From the NCBI GenBank assembly GCA_012519925.1, contig JAAYPF010000007.1, positions 16,232-80,231 of the forward strand: a DNA stretch of 64,000 nt, in the 5' to 3' direction. Below are positions 2,954 to 16,653 of the stretch, piece by piece. The translations under genes and the position numbers were made by a program. The notes below the pieces were generated by a model. It saw nothing but the letters and a program-made list of their open reading frames with translations. It was not told the origin of the DNA and did no database searches. Within the stretch, counting starts at the first letter, position 1. Each line of letters starts with the position of its first letter. This stretch comes from Clostridiaceae bacterium (GTDB lineage Bacteria; Bacillota; Clostridia; Acetivibrionales; Acetivibrionaceae).

Positions 2954-4144
2954 TTATTTATTGAGATTATAGTCCTTTGCTAAAGACTCAAAGGCAGAAA
3001 AAGAATTCTTTATTGTATCAATGCCTACACAGTAAGCCATTCTAAAATACCCCGGAGCACCAAATCCTTTACCGGGAACTAACAAAAGATTGTATTTAAC
3101 TGCACTCTTAATAAAAGCTACATCATCTTCTATTGGAGATTTTGGGAACAAGTAAAAAGCTCCTTCAGGCTTTAAGCATGAAAAACCAAGGCTTATAAGC
3201 TTGTTGTATAAAGTATCGCGTCTTTCTTTATATATATTTACATCAACAGTAGAATCTAGTGTAGCACCAATTACTTTTTGAAAAAGAGCAGGAGCATTTA
3301 CATAGCCTAAAGTACGATTACAGAAGGCCAGACATGATATGACAAGGTTTATATCCTGTATTTGAGGATTTACTGCAATGTATCCTATTCTTTCTCCTGG
3401 TAGAGACAGAGATTTACTGAAAGAGTTTATTGCAAAGGAGTTTTTGTATAGTTTTAAAATACTTGGAAGCTCTACATTGTCATAAACCAGTTTTACATAG
3501 GGTTCATCCGATAAAACAAATATAGTGGAGTTAAATTGTTCTTCTTTTTCTCTGAGAATATCAAAAAGCTTTGTTAAAGTCTCTTTACTGTAAATATGAC
3601 CCGATGGATTATTAGGAGAGTTTATAATAATAGCCTTTGTTCTCTCTGTAATTTTACTTTTAAGCACATCGAGATCAGGATCAAAAGAATCCTTCATCGG
3701 AGGCACAACAATTGTCTTACCTCCATGATTTTCCACATAAAAGTTGTATTCTGCAAAAAAAGGAGCAAGTATAAGTACTTCTTCACCAGGATTTAGAATG
3801 GATTTAAGTACTACATTGAGTCCTCCTGCAGCACCACAGGTCATCAAAATATGTTCGGAGGATAATGATAGTCCAGTTTCATTACTGATTTTGTCTGCAA
3901 TTTTTTGTCTTACATATTCATATCCTGCATTACTCATATACCCATGCATTCCTTGATTGCTTTCTAGAACTATGTTTTTTAAGGCTTCCTTAACTTCTTT
4001 TGGAGGCTCAGGATCCGGATTTCCTAAAGTGAAATCATAGACCTTATCTTTTCCATGAATTTTCCTGAGTTCTTCTCCCTGTTCGAACATGGCCCTTATC
4101 CATGACGCGTTTGAAAGATTGGTTGTTACTTTTTGTGATAGCAT
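2954..4144 (-). CDS. PLP-dependent class I/II aminotransferase (aspartate aminotransferase-like)
   Basis: GNPD, NSPNNPSG, SDEPY, SFSKSLSLPGERIGY (PLP lysine), YFRMAY motifs. Confidence 0.92.
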   Translation of the reverse strand: MLSQKVTTNLSNASWIRAMFEQGEELRKIHGKDKVYDFTLGNPDPEPPKEVKEALKNIVLESNQGMHGYMSNAGYEYVRQKIADKISNETGLSLSSEHILMTCGAAGGLNVVLKSILNPGEEVLILAPFFAEYNFYVENHGGKTIVVPPMKDSFDPDLDVLKSKITERTKAIIINSPNNPSGHIYSKETLTKLFDILREKEEQFNSTIFVLSDEPYVKLVYDNVELPSILKLYKNSFAINSFSKSLSLPGERIGYIAVNPQIQDINLVISCLAFCNRTLGYVNAPALFQKVIGATLDSTVDVNIYKERRDTLYNKLISLGFSCLKPEGAFYLFPKSPIEDDVAFIKSAVKYNLLLVPGKGFGAPGYFRMAYCVGIDTIKNSFSAFESLAKDYNLNK

Positions 4145-4170: not shown

Positions 4171-5940
4171 CTATTTATATTTTAATTTTTTTATTTTGTT
4201 TTCACTGGGGGTAACAATTATAGTTTTATAGTTAACGTAAATAACCATGCCCGGTTTGGCACCTTTTTGCTTCTTAACATTTTTAACTTGGGTATAATCC
4301 ACTTCAACATGGGAGGAGAGCTTACCCTTACTGTGATAGGCAGCAATCAAAGCAGCCTCAACAAGAGTGTTATCTGGAATTTCTCCTATTTGCTTTCTTA
4401 CAATAACATGAGAACCCGGTATATTTTTTGTGTGCAACCAAATATCGTTAGAAGAAGCTGTTTTCAAAGTTAATATATCATTCTGCACATTATTTCTTCC
4501 TGCAAAAATGTCGTAACCATCGGAGGATCTATACCGATATGGTTCTAAGGTCTTGTTATTTCTTTTGTGTTTTGCACTCTTTCTTTCATTCAGATACCCA
4601 ACACTAACAAGCTCCTGCCTTATTTCTTCTATTTCCTGAGTATTGTCTGCACAGTCAAGATTTTGAAGCACACTTTCAATATATTTAAGTTCATTAAAGG
4701 CCTCTTCTAATTGAGTAAGTGTAAAATTATATGCGTTTTTTGCCTTTGAAAATTTCTTAAAATACCTTTGAGCATTTTCTTGCGGTAACATGTTTTCGTC
4801 AAGAGGTATATCTATATATTCTTCGTTTTCACTATAGTAGTTGAGTAGAGAAACCTTTTTTGAATTTCTTGGAATACTATGTATGTTTGCAGTTATAAGT
4901 TCTCCGTATAATTTAAATCTATCACGATCAGCGGCTTCTCTCAATGTATCCTGGTGGATGGTAATTTTCTTATTGCATCGTTCTAAACTGTTATTTAGTA
5001 CTTTATTAAGAGCACTCTTTTTTTGTATAAGTCTTTCAGCATTATCTTTTGATGTATAAAACAAATCTAAAGCATTGCTGATGGAAGAGTGATATTCAAG
5101 AATCGGATATTGAGATATTTTTAAGGAATGAAAATCTATAGGTTTTGTTTTCATTTCATCCCCCCATACGATACAAGGAGAAAAACTTGAAGCAGATATC
5201 TTAGAAATAATTATCTTTAAAGAATTTTTGATTTCTTTAAGTTGTGCATCGGTTAAATCATCGATAAGTGTTTTGCCATCAATTTGGGCTCTATAACATA
5301 CTTCTTCACAAAGAATAGGACTAAAACCTCTTATACTATTTAAGAGATATTTAGAAATACGAAGTCCACCTTGATTTCTTGCATTTATGAAAAGGGTATC
5401 TAGATTGATATCCTCAGGGCTTTCCTTATCCTGACCCGGTGGAAGCGTGTATGGTCTTGCAGGCATAACTTCTCTCACTCTGCTTTTATCTATATCGATG
5501 TGTTTGATAGAGTCAATAATTATGTCTAAATCGTTTAGAAGCATTATATTACTATGCTTTCCCATTATCTCAATAAGCAGTTTTTTATATGTAGTATCTC
5601 CCATTTCGTTAACCGCTTCGACATGAACGGAAATGATCCTTTCAAAATCGAAGAATTCAACTTTTATTATTTTACCTCCGGACAAATGCTTTCTTAAAAG
5701 CATACAAAAGACGGGAGGATTCATAGGGTTTTCCTTTGATAAATCGGTCAAATGAATCCTAGGATAACTCGCATTAGCAGAGAGAATTAGCTTATAATTC
5801 TGACCCTTAGCTCTTATATGAATTAGAATTTCATCATGTTCTGGCTGATATATTTTATCTATTCTTCCACCTATCAAGTCATCAGATAACTCTATTACTA
5901 CATTTTTAGCTACAACTCCATCAAAAGGCAATTTACGCAC
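4171..5940 (-). CDS. rqcH: Ribosome quality control NFACT protein (RqcH/Rqc2, FbpA family)
   Basis: NFACT-N (GGRIDKIYQP...DFERII), coiled coil with NAQRYFKK, NFACT-R (GRNNVQNDILT, WLHTKNIPGSHV, VDYTQVKNV). Confidence 0.93.
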   Translation of the reverse strand: MRKLPFDGVVAKNVVIELSDDLIGGRIDKIYQPEHDEILIHIRAKGQNYKLILSANASYPRIHLTDLSKENPMNPPVFCMLLRKHLSGGKIIKVEFFDFERIISVHVEAVNEMGDTTYKKLLIEIMGKHSNIMLLNDLDIIIDSIKHIDIDKSRVREVMPARPYTLPPGQDKESPEDINLDTLFINARNQGGLRISKYLLNSIRGFSPILCEEVCYRAQIDGKTLIDDLTDAQLKEIKNSLKIIISKISASSFSPCIVWGDEMKTKPIDFHSLKISQYPILEYHSSISNALDLFYTSKDNAERLIQKKSALNKVLNNSLERCNKKITIHQDTLREAADRDRFKLYGELITANIHSIPRNSKKVSLLNYYSENEEYIDIPLDENMLPQENAQRYFKKFSKAKNAYNFTLTQLEEAFNELKYIESVLQNLDCADNTQEIEEIRQELVSVGYLNERKSAKHKRNNKTLEPYRYRSSDGYDIFAGRNNVQNDILTLKTASSNDIWLHTKNIPGSHVIVRKQIGEIPDNTLVEAALIAAYHSKGKLSSHVEVDYTQVKNVKKQKGAKPGMVIYVNYKTIIVTPSENKIKKLKYK

Positions 5941-6119: not shown

Positions 6120-7883
6120 TTATAAAGAATTAGAGGAAGTTCCTTTATAAATAGGGAATTTGATAGTGAATTTGCTCCCATGCATTTCCTTAGATTCAAC
6201 ATCAATTGTACCGCTAAATTCTTTTACTATTCCATAGGTTATAGAAAGTCCAAGTCCGGTGCCTTTATCTACCTCTTTTGTTGTAAAGAACGGGTCAAAT
6301 ACTTTGTTTATTATTGAATTAGGAATTCCGATTCCATTATCGGATATTTCGATAATTACATCTTCTTTGTGGGAGTATATCTTTATGACAATTTTTTTAT
6401 CAATAGATTTGATCGAATCGGAGAAGTCACTGTCAATTCTTGTTTTGCAAATTACACTTTCCAATTCATCTACAGCATCACGAGCATTTCCTATTAGATT
6501 GAGATAAATTTGTTCTAACTTGTTATGATCTGCAAGTATTAAGGGCAAATCGTCGTCAAGTTTTAGTTCAACAGTTATGTTCTTTTTTATAAGTTGTTCG
6601 CCTATTAACTTAAATACATCAAGTAGGGGTTGTTTTACATTAACCTCTTTTTTTGTGTCGTCGGATTGCCTTGCAAAAGTTCTTAAGTGGCTGATAATCT
6701 TGTTAATCCTTTCAACCTGGTCTACTATTGAATATAGTTTTTCTGATAGCATTTCTTCGGTAAGTTTATTACGGTTTTTAGCGAGTATCAAACCTTGAGT
6801 TATCAGGCTGATTCCTCCTAGTGGTTGATTGATTTCATGTGCTATACCAGTGGCCATTTCTCCAAGTGTTGCAAGTTTCCCCGATTGTATCAAAAGGGCA
6901 TCTTTTTCCCTAAGCTGTGATGTTCTTACTTTGACCATACGCTCAAGATTGTCGGCATATTCCCGGATTTCTTCCACTAACCTTTTTCTCTGTATGCCCG
7001 CAGTTATTTCATTAGCTATTAGGCTTAGAACTTGCGTTTCTTTTGTGAAAAAATTCCTTTTAGATGATGAGGTAACAATGTGAAGTATACCAATCAAAGA
7101 GTCATCGGAGGTAAGCGGGATGTGAATTATAAAATTGTCATCTTCAACTAATCTGCTTGTATCGATATATTTAGAAATAGCATGTTTATCTAGCGGCTCT
7201 GAATTTATTATAAACTGCGAATAGGTTTCATAGCAGCTTTTTATATCGTTGTTTATTTTTGACGCATCCGAACAATATATACAATCGTGGTTTAAGCATT
7301 TGTTGCATAGACCAATCTGGGAATTGATGTTGAAATTGTTGTAAAGGTAGTCAAATATGCAGATGAATGCAATGGGAACATCTAAAACAGTGCTTATAAT
7401 ACTGCAAATGGATTGACACATCTCATCAATGTCATTAGGTGAATTAACAATTTGGGTTATTTCAAGAAGTAAATTTCTATACTGCTCTTCGTAAGTTGCT
7501 TTTGTGATGTCTCTTACTATGATCAAAAGACCGCAAAAATCACCTCTAGAAAGCCTTGGTGTTATAGATACCGATAGAGGTTTAGTTTGACCGTCCTTGG
7601 TTTTACCTATCATTTTGTAATCTGTGGTATTTGTTTTTAAAGCATTTTCCACAAGAAAGATATAGTCGATTTCGTTTCCCATTTTCTTATTTAGTCCTAA
7701 AGGTATATGCTTACCTAACATTTCAGAAGGAGAGTATCCATAAATAAGCTGAGCACCTTTATTCCACAAAACAATTTTATTGTCCATGTCTGTGGCAATT
7801 ATGCCATATTCGGTGGAACTTGTAACAATACTTTCAAAAAAATCTGCGGTGCTGATTTGATCGGAAAAAATATGGTATTTCAT
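6120..7883 (-). CDS. Cytoplasmic sensor histidine kinase, PAS-GAF-HisKA-HATPase
   Basis: PAS (IVLWNKGAQLIYGYSPSEMLGK), GAF-like middle region, H-box AHEINQPL, N-box NLIGNARDA, DNGIGI, FDPFFTTK, GTGLGLS; no obvious transmembrane segment. Confidence 0.92.
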   Translation of the reverse strand: MKYHIFSDQISTADFFESIVTSSTEYGIIATDMDNKIVLWNKGAQLIYGYSPSEMLGKHIPLGLNKKMGNEIDYIFLVENALKTNTTDYKMIGKTKDGQTKPLSVSITPRLSRGDFCGLLIIVRDITKATYEEQYRNLLLEITQIVNSPNDIDEMCQSICSIISTVLDVPIAFICIFDYLYNNFNINSQIGLCNKCLNHDCIYCSDASKINNDIKSCYETYSQFIINSEPLDKHAISKYIDTSRLVEDDNFIIHIPLTSDDSLIGILHIVTSSSKRNFFTKETQVLSLIANEITAGIQRKRLVEEIREYADNLERMVKVRTSQLREKDALLIQSGKLATLGEMATGIAHEINQPLGGISLITQGLILAKNRNKLTEEMLSEKLYSIVDQVERINKIISHLRTFARQSDDTKKEVNVKQPLLDVFKLIGEQLIKKNITVELKLDDDLPLILADHNKLEQIYLNLIGNARDAVDELESVICKTRIDSDFSDSIKSIDKKIVIKIYSHKEDVIIEISDNGIGIPNSIINKVFDPFFTTKEVDKGTGLGLSITYGIVKEFSGTIDVESKEMHGSKFTIKFPIYKGTSSNSL

Positions 7884-9044
7884 TTATTCAACCTCGATTC
7901 CTAACAAAGTAATATCATCAAAAAAAGTATTGTTGGAATAATCTTTAACTGCTTGAACCGCCTTTTCTAAAGTAACTGCAAGTGTAGCATCAGTATTGTT
8001 TTTAAAGTGGGACAAAAGTGAATCATCCCCAAAACATGGAGTTTCTTCATCCGGGGCAGCTTCAATTAGCCCATCGGTAAAAAGCCATATTTTATCATAT
8101 TGACACAATTGATTGACGCAACAGCTGTAGGTGGCATCTTCAAATGTTCCTAAAATAGGTCCTGTAGATTCTAAAGGAATATGGCTGCCGTCTTTTCTCA
8201 CTATATACTGGTTAATATGCCCTGCGGATACGGTATAAAGAATTTTGCTCTCTTTATCTATAAAACCTAGTAGCAAGGTTGCAAAGACATTGGTGGCTGT
8301 ATTTGATAAAAGCACCATGTTAAGGTCAAGAACAATTTCAGGAAATCTCCTTTTATTTATACCTTGCTTATAATTATATTCAATGTTTTGAAGGAAACTT
8401 TTAATTATAGTTGAAATTACTGAAGCAAGTATTCCATGACTTGATACGTCAAACACATAGAAACAAATATAGTCTCCAATGTCGGCAACATCATACATAT
8501 CACCGCCTACGGAATCACAGCTTTTGTACTCTACAGCAAAATTATAACCGCTAATGTTAGGGAGTTTTTTAGGAAGCATATTTATAAGAATTTTTTCGGC
8601 CGAATCATGAAGTCCTTGGAGATAATTTTTGTGTTCTAAAAGTTCTCTGTGAATACGGGCATTTTCTAAAAGCAGGTTTTTCTTGTTTACGGCATTATTG
8701 ATTGCTATAGCAAGATTATCCGCTTTTACTGGCTTTTTTAGATACTCAAAGGCCCCCTCTTTCATGGCTTGAATTGCATTTTCAAGGTCACCGTGACCTG
8801 TAAGAATAATTACACCCATTTCAGGCATTATTTTTTTTATTTCCCTCAGTACTTCCATTCCAGAAATGGTGGGCATTTTCATATCGGTAAGAACTACATC
8901 AATCATAGAATAATTCTCTTTGAAATAATTGAGCCCTTCCTCACTACTTGAAAAAGTAATCACTTCATTGTTATCAAGCTCGAGAACAAATTTTATATTG
9001 TCTAGGATAGTTCTTTCATCATCTATAACAAGTATTTTGGACAT
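7884..9044 (-). CDS. Response regulator receiver fused to PP2C/SpoIIE-type phosphatase
   Basis: REC (VIDDE, TDMKMP, KPV) plus PP2C motifs GGDMYD, DVSSHG, TDGLIEA, DDITLL; stop codon directly abuts the kinase ATG. Confidence 0.92.
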   Translation of the reverse strand: MSKILVIDDERTILDNIKFVLELDNNEVITFSSSEEGLNYFKENYSMIDVVLTDMKMPTISGMEVLREIKKIMPEMGVIILTGHGDLENAIQAMKEGAFEYLKKPVKADNLAIAINNAVNKKNLLLENARIHRELLEHKNYLQGLHDSAEKILINMLPKKLPNISGYNFAVEYKSCDSVGGDMYDVADIGDYICFYVFDVSSHGILASVISTIIKSFLQNIEYNYKQGINKRRFPEIVLDLNMVLLSNTATNVFATLLLGFIDKESKILYTVSAGHINQYIVRKDGSHIPLESTGPILGTFEDATYSCCVNQLCQYDKIWLFTDGLIEAAPDEETPCFGDDSLLSHFKNNTDATLAVTLEKAVQAVKDYSNNTFFDDITLLGIEVE

Positions 9045-9109
9045 TTATCTTATTCCTCCCTTTAATATTATAGCAATTTATAAATTAAATTTCCATAGAT
9101 GAAAAGTTG

Positions 9110-9161: not shown

Positions 9162-9452
9162 ATGGTTATAGGAGTTTGTAAGGTGGTTTTAGTAATAGAC
9201 GATGTTTTTTCACTTAAAGAAAAAAGACATATTGTAAAGAGTTTGATAGGAAGAATTAAATCTAGGTTTAATGCTTCGGTTGCAGAAGTAGATCTTAATG
9301 ATAAGTGGAAGAGAGCTGTAATTGGAATTTCTTGTGTGTCAAATGAATCTGGACATGCTGATAGCATGATGGCCAATATAGTTAATTTTATTGAGAATGA
9401 TGGAAGAACAGTGCTTTTTGATTATAGCACTGAGATTATACATGTAGATTGA
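9162..9452 (+). CDS. ylxP: DUF503 family protein (YlxP-like)
   Basis: SLKEKR...KSRFNASVAEV...W.RAVIGISCVSN signature; RBS GAGGTG. Confidence 0.85.
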   Translation: MVIGVCKVVLVIDDVFSLKEKRHIVKSLIGRIKSRFNASVAEVDLNDKWKRAVIGISCVSNESGHADSMMANIVNFIENDGRTVLFDYSTEIIHVD

Positions 9453-9844: not shown

Positions 9845-10843
9845 ATGAAAAAATCTCTTGATAGTGAAAATGAATTACAAAGTAAGAACATTGAGAAGGA
9901 TTACATCTCTATTGTTATACCTTGCTATAACGAAGGAGAATTGCTCTTTGTATTACACGACAAATTATGTGAAATAACAAAGTTAATGCCTAACAGTAAT
10001 TTTGAGTTCATATTTGTGGATGACGGTTCAAAAGACAAGACTATGGAAACCATTAAGACGCTTGCATCAAAAGATGCACGAGTCAAGTATATATCCTTCT
10101 CTCGAAATTTTGGTAAAGAGTCTGCTATGCTAGCCGGCATGGAAATGTCAAAGGGGGATTATGTTGCTATAATAGATGCGGACATGCAGGACCCACCGAC
10201 ACTTATTCCGGAAATGTATCAAGGTATCAAAAAAGAAGGATATGATTGTGTAGCTGCAAGGCGAGTTAACCGCATTGGTGAACCGATGATCCGGTCTTTT
10301 TTTGCAAGGCAGTTCTATAAAATAATGCGAAAGCTCAGTAAGACTGAAATTGTCGATGGAGCTAGGGACTTTAGATTGATGACCCGACAAATGACAAACG
10401 CAATACTTTCAGTATGTGAATACAACCGTTTTTCTAAGGGAATTTTTTCTTGGGTCGGTTTTAATACAAAGTGGTTGGAATATGAAAACATTGAGCGTGC
10501 AGGTGGTGAGAGCAAATGGTCCTTTTGGAAGCTCTTTATCTATTCTATAGATGGGATAGTAGCATTTTCTACTGCACCCCTTGCATTATCATCATTATTG
10601 GGTATTTTCTTTTGTGTTATTGCTTTTATAGCAATAATATTTACTATTGTCCGACAAATTGTTTGGGGAGGGTCTGCCTATGGCTGGTCTTCAACTATAT
10701 GTATTATTTTGTTTTTAGCTGGTATACAGTTGTTTTGCATTGGGATTTTAGGACAGTATCTTTCTAAGACATATTTAGAGACAAAAAGACGTCCTATTTA
10801 TATTGTAAAAGAAAAAGGTGGTGACATTGATGAAGGGAAATAG
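9845..10843 (+). CDS. GT2 polyprenol-phosphate glycosyltransferase (GtrB/CsbB-like)
   Basis: VIPCYNE, FVDDGSKD, FSRNFGKE, DADMQDPP, GDFRLM-type motif, RFSKG, two C-terminal TM helices, ETKRRPIY. Confidence 0.9.
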   Translation: MKKSLDSENELQSKNIEKDYISIVIPCYNEGELLFVLHDKLCEITKLMPNSNFEFIFVDDGSKDKTMETIKTLASKDARVKYISFSRNFGKESAMLAGMEMSKGDYVAIIDADMQDPPTLIPEMYQGIKKEGYDCVAARRVNRIGEPMIRSFFARQFYKIMRKLSKTEIVDGARDFRLMTRQMTNAILSVCEYNRFSKGIFSWVGFNTKWLEYENIERAGGESKWSFWKLFIYSIDGIVAFSTAPLALSSLLGIFFCVIAFIAIIFTIVRQIVWGGSAYGWSSTICIILFLAGIQLFCIGILGQYLSKTYLETKRRPIYIVKEKGGDIDEGK

Positions 10844-13142
10844 ATGCAAAACGATTATTATTGCAACTCTTTGTTTTATGCTGCCAGCCATTATAGTTCT
10901 AATAGCTTTTGCAAAGATGAGAATGGCACCTTTTGGTGAGAGTTCAACAATGATCATGGATATGTCTGAACAGTATGTTGAGTTTCTATGTGGTTTAAAA
11001 AGCGGGGATGTTTTATTTTCATGGTCTAAGGCTTTAGGAGGAAATTATATAGGTGTATTTACATATTATGTATCTAGCCCCTTTTCATTTCTAACACTGT
11101 TTTGTCCAAATTCTCATATGCCTATTGCTGTATTGTTTTTGACAGTTTTAAAAATAGGATTGGCTGGATTGTCATTTAGTTTATTGCTACGTTACAGATT
11201 TGGTAGATATGATCTGTCTACCGTGTTGTTTTCGATGTTTTATGGACTTATGTCCTATAATATAGGATATTCAATGTGTATCATGTGGCTAGATGGTGTT
11301 ATCTGGCTTCCGTTGATAATTATTGGTATCGAAAAAATACTTGAGGACAAAAAAAGCTGGTTTCTAACATTCTGCTTATTTATATCTTTTATATCAACCT
11401 ATTATATTTCATATATGACGGGATTATTTACTGCTATCTATTTTCTCTATCGTTGTTTTGAGAAAAAAATTAAAATTAAACAGTTTTTTAGCTACTTAGG
11501 TAAATTTATATTGAGTGTTATTGTGGCGGCTTCTTGGGGAGCATTTTTATTGCTTCCGACACTAATTTCACTTTTTCAGGGCAAAATAGGTTCAATTAGT
11601 ATGGATTACTCAGGAATATTTAATTTTTCATTATTTGAGTCTAAGCTTAGATACAAATTTCTACCTGGAGGCTATGATTCAATTACAAATTCAGGTACAC
11701 CTTTTATTTACTGTGGTCTTTTAGTATTTTTATTGTTTTTGGTCTTTTTTGCCATAAGAAAAATAAGCTTACGAAGCAAAATTTCCACTGCACTTTTCAC
11801 AATCCTTATGTTTTGCAGCTTGTGGTTTTGCAAACTTGATAAAGTGTGGCATGCTTTTCAATATCCAAATTGGTTCCCTTACAGGTATTCTTTCTTGTTT
11901 TCATTTTTGATTATTATTACTGCATATAGAGCTTTTATAGAATTTAAGCTTAATAGGAGAACTATAGCTATTATACTTCTTATAATTTGCTCTGTTGATA
12001 TGTACGGCAATACAATAGGTATTCTTAAGGGATTAGACAGAGAATTCAGGTATTCAACCTATGAGAATTATCATGGCTATAAGAAAATGATTGAACCTCT
12101 AGTAGATGAAACAAAAAAGGATAAGGATGTTTTTTTCCGCATGGGAGCTACTTTTGAACGGACAAAGAATGAACCTATAGGATTTGGTTATAAGGGAATA
12201 ACCCACTATAGTTCAACCTATAACAGGCATGTTAATAATTTTCTTCAAAGAATGGGAATGGCTCAGGCATGGCTATTTAGCTCGTATTTTGGCTCTACTA
12301 TGGTGACGGATGCTTTATTTTCTGTAAAGTATGTTATTTCCGAGCGTCCTATGTCGCCAGATTACAGCATAATTAAGCAAAGCGGTAGGGCTATTTTATC
12401 TCGTAATCCCAATGCACTTTCAATCGGTATAGCTGCAAAGAGCAAGTCACTTAAGGAGTTTACTTTCAGTAATAATCCTTTACAGGCACAGAACTCCTTG
12501 GTTAAAGCCTTGACTGGGACGCAGGAGGATTGTTTTGTTTCTTTAGATGCTACAGAAACGTATAATGACAATATTGTTGAACATACTATTGTTTCAAACG
12601 GAATGCCTATATATGCACATTTTGTTTCTAATCAAGATGGTGGAGAGTTATTAGTCAATGGAAGGCGTATTTCGGGACTCTTTTCAAATGAAACAAGATG
12701 CATTCAGTATATTGGTACATTTCCTCAAGGAGAAAATGTGAGTGTTGAAATTAGGCATAACTCAAACGCATATGGGGAATTTTACTATCTGCATACTGAG
12801 AACTTTGAGAGGATTGTGTCAGCGTTAAGAGCCTCGGAATTATCAGTAGATTATTGTTATAACGGACGTATTGGAGGAACAGTAACTGCTAATGAAGGTG
12901 ATATGCTATTTACAACAATTCCCTATGATAAAGGGTGGAAGGCGTATGTTGACGGCAAGCAAGTGCAATTGAAACCTTTTGCTAATTCACTTATTACAAT
13001 ACCCCTCACAGCAGGAACACACGAAATCAAACTGACTTATATACCGACAGGTTTTATTGAAGGTGTTTGTATATCCGTGATTCCAGGACTTTTGGCTTTA
13101 GTAATATTTTTTATAACTAAAAAGTTTCGACGGGCTGTTTAA
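10818..13142 (+). CDS. yfhO: YfhO-family multi-TM GT-C glycosyltransferase
   Basis: DMSEQY early loop, YYVSSPF, MWLDGVIWLP, YISYM, WHAFQYPNWFPYRYSF, C-terminal TIPYDKGWKAYVDG; overlaps the GT2 gene end. Confidence 0.85.
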   Translation: MVTLMKGNRCKTIIIATLCFMLPAIIVLIAFAKMRMAPFGESSTMIMDMSEQYVEFLCGLKSGDVLFSWSKALGGNYIGVFTYYVSSPFSFLTLFCPNSHMPIAVLFLTVLKIGLAGLSFSLLLRYRFGRYDLSTVLFSMFYGLMSYNIGYSMCIMWLDGVIWLPLIIIGIEKILEDKKSWFLTFCLFISFISTYYISYMTGLFTAIYFLYRCFEKKIKIKQFFSYLGKFILSVIVAASWGAFLLLPTLISLFQGKIGSISMDYSGIFNFSLFESKLRYKFLPGGYDSITNSGTPFIYCGLLVFLLFLVFFAIRKISLRSKISTALFTILMFCSLWFCKLDKVWHAFQYPNWFPYRYSFLFSFLIIITAYRAFIEFKLNRRTIAIILLIICSVDMYGNTIGILKGLDREFRYSTYENYHGYKKMIEPLVDETKKDKDVFFRMGATFERTKNEPIGFGYKGITHYSSTYNRHVNNFLQRMGMAQAWLFSSYFGSTMVTDALFSVKYVISERPMSPDYSIIKQSGRAILSRNPNALSIGIAAKSKSLKEFTFSNNPLQAQNSLVKALTGTQEDCFVSLDATETYNDNIVEHTIVSNGMPIYAHFVSNQDGGELLVNGRRISGLFSNETRCIQYIGTFPQGENVSVEIRHNSNAYGEFYYLHTENFERIVSALRASELSVDYCYNGRIGGTVTANEGDMLFTTIPYDKGWKAYVDGKQVQLKPFANSLITIPLTAGTHEIKLTYIPTGFIEGVCISVIPGLLALVIFFITKKFRRAV

Positions 13143-16065: not shown

Positions 16066-16653
16066 ATGGATTTGAATATTAATAATGCCAGATTTGAAAA
16101 AGGTGCTGTTAAGCCTGCACATTATCCTGACAACAACATACCAGAGATAACCTTTGTTGGCAGATCAAATGTGGGCAAGTCGTCTTTAATAAATGCTTTA
16201 CTTAATAGAAAAAGTTTGGCAAGGGTTGCCTCAAAGCCTGGAAAGACGAGGGAAATAAATTTCTATAATATCGATGACACAGTTTACTTTGTTGATTTGC
16301 CGGGGTATGGCTATGCAAAAGTATCAAAGGATGTTAAGTATTCGTGGGGAGAATCGATAGAGACTTATTTGAACAGCAGCAAAAAGATAAAGCTTGTAAT
16401 TATGCTTGTGGATATAAGACATTCACCGTCGGAAGATGATAAAATGATGTCTGCGTGGTTGACAGAATTATCATTTCCTTATATTGTTGTTGCTACAAAA
16501 AAGGATAAAATACCGCGTGCAAAGCTAAAGGAAAGACTTGCTGATATATCAACGAGTTTAGGACTTAATAATGACACTCTATTAATTCCGTTTTCTTCAG
16601 AAACTAAGGATGGTAGAGAAGAAGTGATGAATTATATTAATTCAATTTTATAA
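16066..16653 (+). CDS. engB: Ribosome biogenesis GTPase EngB/YsxC
   Basis: GRSNVGKSSL, KPGKT, DLPGYGYA, TKKDK motifs. Confidence 0.96.
   Translation: MDLNINNARFEKGAVKPAHYPDNNIPEITFVGRSNVGKSSLINALLNRKSLARVASKPGKTREINFYNIDDTVYFVDLPGYGYAKVSKDVKYSWGESIETYLNSSKKIKLVIMLVDIRHSPSEDDKMMSAWLTELSFPYIVVATKKDKIPRAKLKERLADISTSLGLNNDTLLIPFSSETKDGREEVMNYINSIL

Follow-up and report, generated by a model that had tools for sequence, protein, structure and literature searches.

The 64,000-nucleotide stretch analysed here (positions 16,232 to 80,231 of contig JAAYPF010000007.1 of a Clostridiaceae bacterium; hereafter the window) encodes on its minus strand a cytoplasmic sensor histidine kinase whose GAF domain is rich in cysteine, together with a response regulator that ends in a phosphatase domain. 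An earlier annotation made from the letters alone (the original prediction) had singled out a CxxC-x4-CxxC string in this kinase as a possible iron-sulfur (Fe-S) or Zn sensor of oxygen or redox state that would drive a phosphatase rather than a transcription factor. The kinase gene and its principal parts are:

6120..7883, minus strand: sensor histidine kinase, PAS-GAF-HisKA-HATPase_c, cytoplasmic, 587 amino acids (open reading frame (ORF) and Pfam)
7500..7814, minus strand: PAS domain, residues 24-128 (Pfam PAS_9 match at residues 27-128)
6984..7442, minus strand: GAF domain, residues ~148-300 (AlphaFold, Foldseek and jackhmmer)
7272..7307, minus strand: CxxC-x4-CxxC string C193-NK-C196-LNHD-C201-IY-C204, residues 193-204 (codons)
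6837..6839, minus strand: H349, the H-box histidine (AHEINQPL) and site of phosphorylation (invariant; HisKA match)

The catalytic half of the protein is that of a class I histidine kinase, with Pfam matches to HisKA at residues 340-406 (E 1.4e-10) and HATPase_c at residues 452-578 (E 1.4e-21), and with H349, N462, N466, D515, G519 and G541-G545 all invariant. The kinase had been taken to be soluble, and this is borne out: we looked for an N-terminal hydrophobic segment and found none, which places the protein in the cytoplasm, and its sole hydrophobic 19-mer, beginning at residue 159, forms the alpha1/beta1 core of the GAF fold.

The cysteine string is real and more than a chance pattern. Its codons, checked on the minus strand of the kinase gene, are those for C193 (7305-7307, gca>TGC), C196 (7296-7298, gca>TGC), C201 (7281-7283, aca>TGT) and C204 (7272-7274, aca>TGT), and the plus strand has no ORF of at least 50 amino acids across 7272-7307. 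Among the 2515 ORFs of at least 150 amino acids in the genome, 2 contain the exact CxxCx4CxxC string, versus ~0.016 chance occurrences predicted from the frequency of cysteine. The further cysteines that had been pointed out nearby are also present, C156 and C160 in MCQSIC, C175 in FICIF and C217 in KSCYE; altogether 8 of the 10 cysteines of the kinase fall within residues 130-320 (8 in 191 residues, 4.2%, versus 1.1% in the long ORFs of the genome).

To describe conservation we used two sets of homologs. A search with the GAF region returned 42 full-length orthologues of the kinase, the named sources of which include Acetivibrio alkalicellulosi, A. mesophilus, Herbivorax and Hungateiclostridium (Acetivibrio) thermocellum, and residues were counted in 39 orthologues of at least 51% identity; an exhaustive HMMER search supplied a more distant set of six relatives at ~30-47% identity. 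The cysteines and histidines are conserved as follows:

C117, the only cysteine of the PAS domain: Cys in 12/39 orthologues, not conserved
C156: Cys in 38/39 orthologues
C160: Cys in 30/39 orthologues, I/V in the others
7359..7361, minus strand: C175, beta1, predicted to face the pocket; 39/39 orthologues and 10/10 distant relatives
C193: Cys in 33/39 orthologues
C196: Cys in 22/39 orthologues, Tyr in 10
H199: His in 37/39 orthologues
7281..7283, minus strand: C201, beta3, inside the reported string; Cys in 39/39 orthologues
C204: Cys in 5/39 orthologues, Tyr in 15
7233..7235, minus strand: C217, alpha3, predicted contacts H254 and I266; Cys in 39/39 orthologues
7182..7184, minus strand: H234, candidate member of the Cys/His pocket; His in 38/39 orthologues
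7122..7124, minus strand: H254, beta5; His in 39/39 orthologues
7080..7082, minus strand: H268, beta6; His in 38/39 orthologues, one Asn

Conservation of the cysteines in homologs, on which the original prediction depended, thus splits the string in two: C201 and largely C193 are kept, and C196 and C204 are not. The protein of the window is the only one among the 39 with all four, and several of its closest sampled relatives (~78-90% identity overall; P0002/P0005/P0006/P0007/P0009) have tyrosine at position 196. Since C196 and C204 vary and this protein alone has the complete string, CxxC-x4-CxxC is, on these alignments, a species-specific elaboration of a cysteine-rich lid and not the defining motif. 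Taken literally, the string would be a contiguous four-ligand Fe-S or Zn site; four cysteines in 12 residues are indeed rare, and a small Zn knuckle or additional ligands are conceivable in this single species, but nearly all members of the family would then lack a function that depended on the four, and we consider this reading very improbable.

In the six distant relatives C175, C201, C217, H254 and H268 alone are invariant; C156 is replaced by S/V/L and C160 by I/L/V/M, C193, C196, H199 and C204 vary, and further cysteines occur between residues 196 and 230 at positions that are not constant. A genome of another family, with a kinase at 47% identity, retains C175, H199, C201, C217, H234, H254 and H268 and is without C156, C160, C193, C196 and C204. 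Across the 39 orthologues 5.8% of the residues in the GAF core are cysteine, no protein having fewer than 4 there, versus 0.27% in the remainder. As judged from these alignments, the signature of the family is a Cys3His2 set (C175, C201, C217, H254 and H268) with the near-invariant H199 and H234 in addition. This set, whose histidines the original prediction had passed over, replaces the four-cysteine string as the signal to be explained; among the further cysteines C175 and C217 belong to it, while C156 and C160 do not.

Of the 149 genomes examined in the order, 27 carry the orthologous GAF protein, which is single-copy: 16 of 21 in its own family, 7/9, 2/3 and 1/1 in three others, and none of the 38 genomes in each of two large families; sampling across the class gave 5 in 399 genomes. 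The kinase family is restricted to the Acetivibrio lineage, A. thermocellus included. A pattern search for related loci, using the full-length alignment and patterns of the kinase core, returned unrelated NtrB-type kinases alone.

The segment with the string had been called GAF-like, and the structure prediction that had been proposed as a check gives a canonical GAF fold, with a predicted local distance difference test score (pLDDT) of 88.6 and a predicted template-modelling score (pTM) of 0.87 for the GAF region alone; in the model of the full-length kinase pLDDT is 84-94 across the same region. The AlphaFold model comprises helices alpha1 (152-166), a short helix (194-198), alpha3 (212-223) and alpha4 (235-239), strands beta1 (171-178), beta2 (183-190), beta3 (200-202), beta4 (227-230), beta5 (250-259) and beta6 (262-272), and, after beta6, a signalling helix that reaches the DHp domain; the string is part of the lid segment that joins beta2 to alpha3. 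Foldseek with the GAF-only model gave Nlh2 (4g3v) as the best match (E 2.8e-9, TM 0.67/0.74) and a probability of 1.00 for the GAF domains of Nlh2, PtsP, NifA, fRMsr and phytochromes, with TM up to 0.74; with the full-length model the kinase core dominated the matches. At the level of sequence, jackhmmer joined the domain to 1391 GAF domains, a set drawn from the 150 best representative hits. The Pfam match to GAF_2 at residues 151-297 is weak (22.1 bits versus a gathering cut-off of 28.6 bits, E 1.9e-4), and GAF_3 and GAF score weaker still. Searches of the Protein Data Bank (PDB) with the single GAF sequence and with a profile returned generic GAF domains alone, Nlh1/2 and PtsP, and in the PDB alignments listed no conserved Cys/His position of the kinase GAF was matched to a ligand residue. 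By the predicted fold, then, the segment with the cysteine string is a GAF domain.

Within this fold the conserved residues are set apart from those of other GAF domains in several ways. 1) The quartet C175/C217/H254/H268 is present in 47 of the 1391 GAF domains, every one of them from the orthologue group of the kinase, and generic GAF domains have Y/A/F, V/A/I, G/A and S/A/N at these positions respectively. 2) Down to 30% identity the quartet is more conserved than the residues that surround it. 3) Mean-field direct coupling analysis (DCA) was run with and without the 49 family members, lest their shared ancestry create couplings among the two cysteines and two histidines, and the ranks were almost unchanged on their removal; without them, on 1306 unrelated GAF domains (effective number of sequences, Meff, 1290; length, L, 173), it placed within the top L contacts 217-254 (rank 11), 217-266 (24), 216-234 (37), 175-268 (96), 254-268 (98) and 175-214 (127); 175-186 ranked 26. 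These contacts, with the alternation of residues along the strands, point to a contiguous patch of C175, C217, H254 and H268 on the ligand-pocket face, with H234 beside residue 216. C156 and C160 are coupled to A172 and S188 on the other, alpha1 face and are predicted to lie on that opposite, structural side of the sheet. C201 sits in an insertion absent from 73% of generic GAF domains, and for this reason it could not be placed in the pocket.

The division between the two faces bears on a rival explanation, that the cysteines and histidines only pack the core of a lineage-specific GAF domain that serves dimerisation or relays a signal from the PAS domain, with no ligand at all. The exchange of C160 with I/V/L/M and of C156 with L/V/S is what packing residues would do, the Pfam score for GAF is weak, and the upstream PAS domain could be the true sensor. 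However, invariant histidines where 1300 other GAF domains have Gly/Ala/Ser are unlikely packing residues, the conserved positions are on the pocket face rather than the helical face, and the quartet outlasts its neighbors in divergent sequences; we therefore regard a purely structural role for the whole set as unlikely.

Metal sites described for this pocket are those of NorR, the GAF domain of which binds non-haem Fe (PMC4601167), and of PexR, which binds Zn/Fe2+ through H102, H120, C122 and D140 and senses H2O2 (PMC12754779); in both a mononuclear centre is held by ligands drawn from beta5 and beta6 together with the preceding loop, and it serves to sense NO or H2O2 (PMC4601167, PMC12754779). 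Alignment through the jackhmmer-built GAF profile (a direct hhalign comparison of family profile and single NorR sequence gave a probability of 0.4%) maps the Fe ligands of E. coli NorR on the kinase as D96=H234, C113=I252, D131=V270 and R75=D213, with D99 at S237, so that the NorR ligand set (R75, D96, D99, C113 and D131) is not reproduced in the kinase by this alignment. The offsets are small: the C113 site is i-2 of H254, the D131 site i+2 of H268 and the R75 site i-4 of C217, and these positions share their strand or helix face with H254, H268 and C217. The kinase would thus use the same pocket, with H234 in register with D96 and with H254 and H268 one step of the beta-ladder from C113 and D131. 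It differs in that three cysteines plus histidine stand in place of Asp, His and one Cys, with all positions but one offset, and in its kinase output, where that of NorR and PexR is a sigma-54 AAA+ activator.

An enzyme of the GAF fold, free methionine-R-sulfoxide reductase (fRMsr), raises the possibility of a metal-free thiol switch, in which the cysteines of pocket and lid (C175, C201, C217 and those of the lid) would form reversible disulfides or become sulfenylated or persulfidated under oxidative or sulfur stress and the kinase would respond. fRMsr structures (3mmh, 1f5m and 4mmn) are among the Foldseek matches, and the three active-site cysteines of the E. coli enzyme, Cys84/94/118 in the numbering of the literature and 66/76/100 in the annotated MsrC, align with the lid and alpha3 of the kinase, a lid rich in extra, mobile cysteines. 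The equivalents are K195, I214 and L245; the three catalytic cysteines are missing, and the fRMsr positions differ from those conserved in the kinase. A thiol switch also leaves no obvious role for the invariant H254 and H268 and the near-invariant H199 and H234, all of them typical metal ligands, and we think it improbable, if worth keeping in view.

The cysteines and histidines might instead hold an organic cofactor or small ligand in the pocket, such as haem, another tetrapyrrole or a metabolite, as in DosS/DosT or, through a Cys-linked bilin, in phytochrome-type GAF domains; bilin-binding GAF domains are among the Foldseek matches. Pairs of cysteine and histidine are classic axial ligands of haem, and in MsmS of Methanosarcina a GAF cysteine bears the haem. 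In Mycobacterium tuberculosis the GAF-A domain of DosS/DosT, likewise the gas- or redox-sensing module of a histidine kinase, binds haem in its pocket through one histidine (PMC4601167). In the kinase, by contrast, the 5-7 conserved Cys/His residues exceed what ligation of haem requires, the CXXCH motif is absent, and no match to chromophore-binding GAF domains rose above the general level of the fold, nor was specific sequence similarity to DosS/DosT found. Ferrochelatase (PF00762) was not found in the genome, which is 99.98% complete, and this makes haem in particular less likely. A cofactor of this class is accordingly hard to favor.

We prefer a metal in the pocket because the Cys and His residues that line what is predicted to be a canonical GAF pocket form an invariant patch specific to the family; that these residues coordinate a metal, or form a redox-active metal centre, seems to us about an even call. 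Of the metal- or redox-related GAF site put forward in the original prediction, the cysteine-rich character and a probable relation to metal or redox chemistry remain, and the four-cysteine string as its conserved unit does not. Two kinds of centre may be envisaged: 1) an Fe-S cluster with both Cys and His as ligands, in which a "floating" extra cysteine of the lid (residues 193-230) completes the set, or 2) a mononuclear site for Fe or Zn such as NorR and PexR have. An Fe-S cluster specifically is clearly less probable than a metal centre as such, and we put it forward with considerable doubt.

Precedent for such a cluster comes from CSK/Hik2, in which a redox-active [3Fe-4S] cluster is bound by the GAF domain with no canonical cysteine motif and partly non-cysteinyl ligation, the redox state of the cluster controls autokinase activity, and C19 is the only cysteine ligand identified in Hik2 (PMC6949291). 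By description, this too is a soluble sensor of the histidine-kinase type whose GAF domain lies at the N terminus; it differs in having no PAS domain and another domain order, in signaling to a transcription-related regulator or sigma factor rather than a PP2C phosphatase, and in that the Cys3His2 constellation is not reported there. The comparators named originally, NreB and AirS, are less apt. Both are cytoplasmic staphylococcal kinases with a cysteine-ligated cluster that reports O2 or oxidants, four PAS cysteines binding [4Fe-4S] in NreB and C-x7-C-x-C-x17-C binding [2Fe-2S] in AirS (PMC4601167). The PAS domain of the present kinase has a single cysteine (C117), CxxC-x(9-14)-CxxC is absent from the protein, and a regular expression for the AirS pattern likewise found no match; in addition, both proteins signal to DNA-binding regulators. 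In the literature searched we found no description of the pocket constellation Cys3His2(+2), and ligation of a cluster by Cys3 plus His (C175, C201, C217 and H254/H268) is, to judge from that literature, undescribed for any GAF domain.

The output of the kinase is indicated by its gene neighborhood:

7884..9044, minus strand: response regulator, 386 amino acids, REC at residues 4-115 and PP2C/SpoIIE at residues 191-385 (Pfam)
9067..9095, minus strand: TGGAAA-17-TATAAT, resembling a promoter whose -10 element is extended by TG, upstream of the regulator gene (consensus match only)

The regulator matches Response_reg (E 4.4e-27) and SpoIIE (E 6.5e-34), and its acceptor aspartate lies in VLTDMKMP. 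Its gene is upstream of the kinase gene, the stop codon abutting the kinase ATG, and a REC-PP2C gene is directly upstream of the kinase in 14 of the 14 related loci whose DNA includes that side, in agreement with the proposal that the kinase drives a phosphatase. In the most distant genome (L107, G171:C68) the regulator is 63% identical and the kinase 47%; in this comparison the sensor is evolving faster than its output. The pairing itself has a precedent in Bacillus cereus, where RsbK phosphorylates the REC-PP2C regulator RsbY, which dephosphorylates RsbV-P and so feeds RsbV/W-SigB (PMC7522486). The present regulator has the same REC plus SpoIIE/PP2C organization and the same partnership with a histidine kinase, although RsbK is a membrane-bound hybrid kinase with other sensor domains. 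The architecture had not been recognised as described, and with RsbK-RsbY on record its novelty does not hold for the output; CSK/Hik2 (PMC6949291) and NorR/PexR (PMC4601167, PMC12754779) are forerunners for the sensor.

The order DUF503, REC-PP2C, kinase, NFACT, aminotransferase is common to A. thermocellus ATCC 27405 and a distant Clostridia metagenome-assembled genome, except for the DUF503 slot, which in the latter holds an Aldedh/Fe-ADH gene. In the window a 96-amino-acid ORF at 9162-9452 on the plus strand, at the position that a DUF503 gene occupies in A. thermocellus, diverges from the regulator-kinase operon. Downstream of the kinase and on the same strand follow an NFACT/RqcH-like gene (4171-5940) and then an aminotransferase gene (2954-4144); a terminator-like site was looked for after the kinase and none was found. 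Farther out, at 9845-13142 on the plus strand, a 332-amino-acid ORF, which by eye we take to be a family-2 glycosyltransferase, overlaps by 26 nucleotides a 774-amino-acid ORF with many hydrophobic segments.

The genome encodes four STAS-domain genes and gives seven SpoIIE-type PP2C matches. A SpoIIAA-AB-SigF module is on contig C244, an RsbV-like/RsbW-like/sigma module with no adjacent phosphatase is on contig C233 (42363-43834), and an orphan STAS protein of 111 amino acids is encoded on contig C66 (C66:44671-45006). The RsbV-like protein and the orphan STAS protein are candidate substrates of the regulator. The surroundings of both loci gave some further observations. The C233 module is accompanied, within C233:42363-44373, by a further small HATPase-like ORF, and the gene beside it presumably encodes a lysyl-tRNA synthetase, judged by eye with no profile check. 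In many draft assemblies just 1.5-2.5 kb separate the RsbW-like gene of this type from the end of a contig; this suggests that a repeat such as an rRNA operon neighbors the module. The region C66:41575-45006 also encodes, 2 kb from the orphan STAS protein, a 383-amino-acid protein that ends in a SpoIIE-type PP2C match and carries the cysteine string CYKAIGRNAPCENC, C-x10-C-x2-C. By eye, with no profile confirmation, we take its N-terminus to be PAS-like, and it could be a second cysteine-bearing sensor phosphatase.

These components may be joined in a mechanism of the following form. Exposure to O2, peroxide or NO, or a shift in redox poise, would oxidize, nitrosylate or deplete the centre and thereby reshape the GAF pocket. 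The change could then be transmitted along the continuous helix that runs from beta6 to the DHp domain (residues 273-349), altering autophosphorylation of H349 and phosphotransfer to the receiver aspartate of the co-transcribed REC-PP2C regulator, and the phosphatase would in turn act on a phosphorylated STAS-domain anti-anti-sigma factor. In its fullest form, an Fe-S cluster on C175, C201, C217 and a histidine (H254 or H268) would sense O2, reactive oxygen species (ROS), NO or redox poise and signal through REC-PP2C to a partner-switching sigma module in cellulolytic clostridia that are obligate anaerobes, Acetivibrio thermocellus among them; this complete chain is a tentative proposal which we would not expect to hold in every link.

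Several points weigh against a metal centre and the pathway built on it. 1) No canonical Fe-S spacing motif is present in the kinase; the ferredoxin, radical-SAM, CXXCH, NreB and AirS spacings were looked for and none was found. 2) The conserved positions differ from the ligand positions of NorR, with the exception of H234=D96. 3) The predicted clustering of the residues draws on coevolution in other GAF domains and on the alignment to NorR, and the Fe site of NorR is itself a model supported by mutagenesis. 4) Weak DCA hints set beta3 by beta2, and C201 may lie too distant from H254 for one mononuclear site to include both. 5) Anaerobes tolerate buried cysteines, C156 and C160 behave as hydrophobic core, and part of the cysteine richness is probably structural. 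6) The co-occurrence of kinase and RsbW-like gene lends the downstream target no support: the RsbW-like gene is found in 132 of 149 genomes of the order, versus 27 for the kinase, and being nearly universal there it neither supports nor excludes an RsbW-like target.

Signaling from a kinase to a REC-PP2C regulator and Fe-S or Fe sensing by GAF domains are both known already, and the kinase is a variant of the metal- or redox-sensing GAF kinases with a known type of phosphatase output. A literature search with the guessed A. thermocellus tags Cthe_0580-0584, inferred from the gene order beside Cthe_0578, returned nothing on the kinase or regulator, and the main text of a redox-perturbation transcriptome paper mentions neither. 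If the pocket is not a metal site, the protein would be an ordinary lineage-specific sensor kinase. If it does hold a redox-active metal, the family would constitute a delineated Cys/His metal-GAF subfamily with a defined set of ligands, which is still missing for the Fe-S GAF kinase CSK/Hik2 with its one known ligand, and it would provide a direct oxidant or redox input to PP2C-based partner switching in strict anaerobes. An orthologue is present in A. thermocellus, a biofuel organism that can be manipulated genetically and whose ethanol yield is limited by redox sensing, and hence the hypothesis could be quickly tested there.

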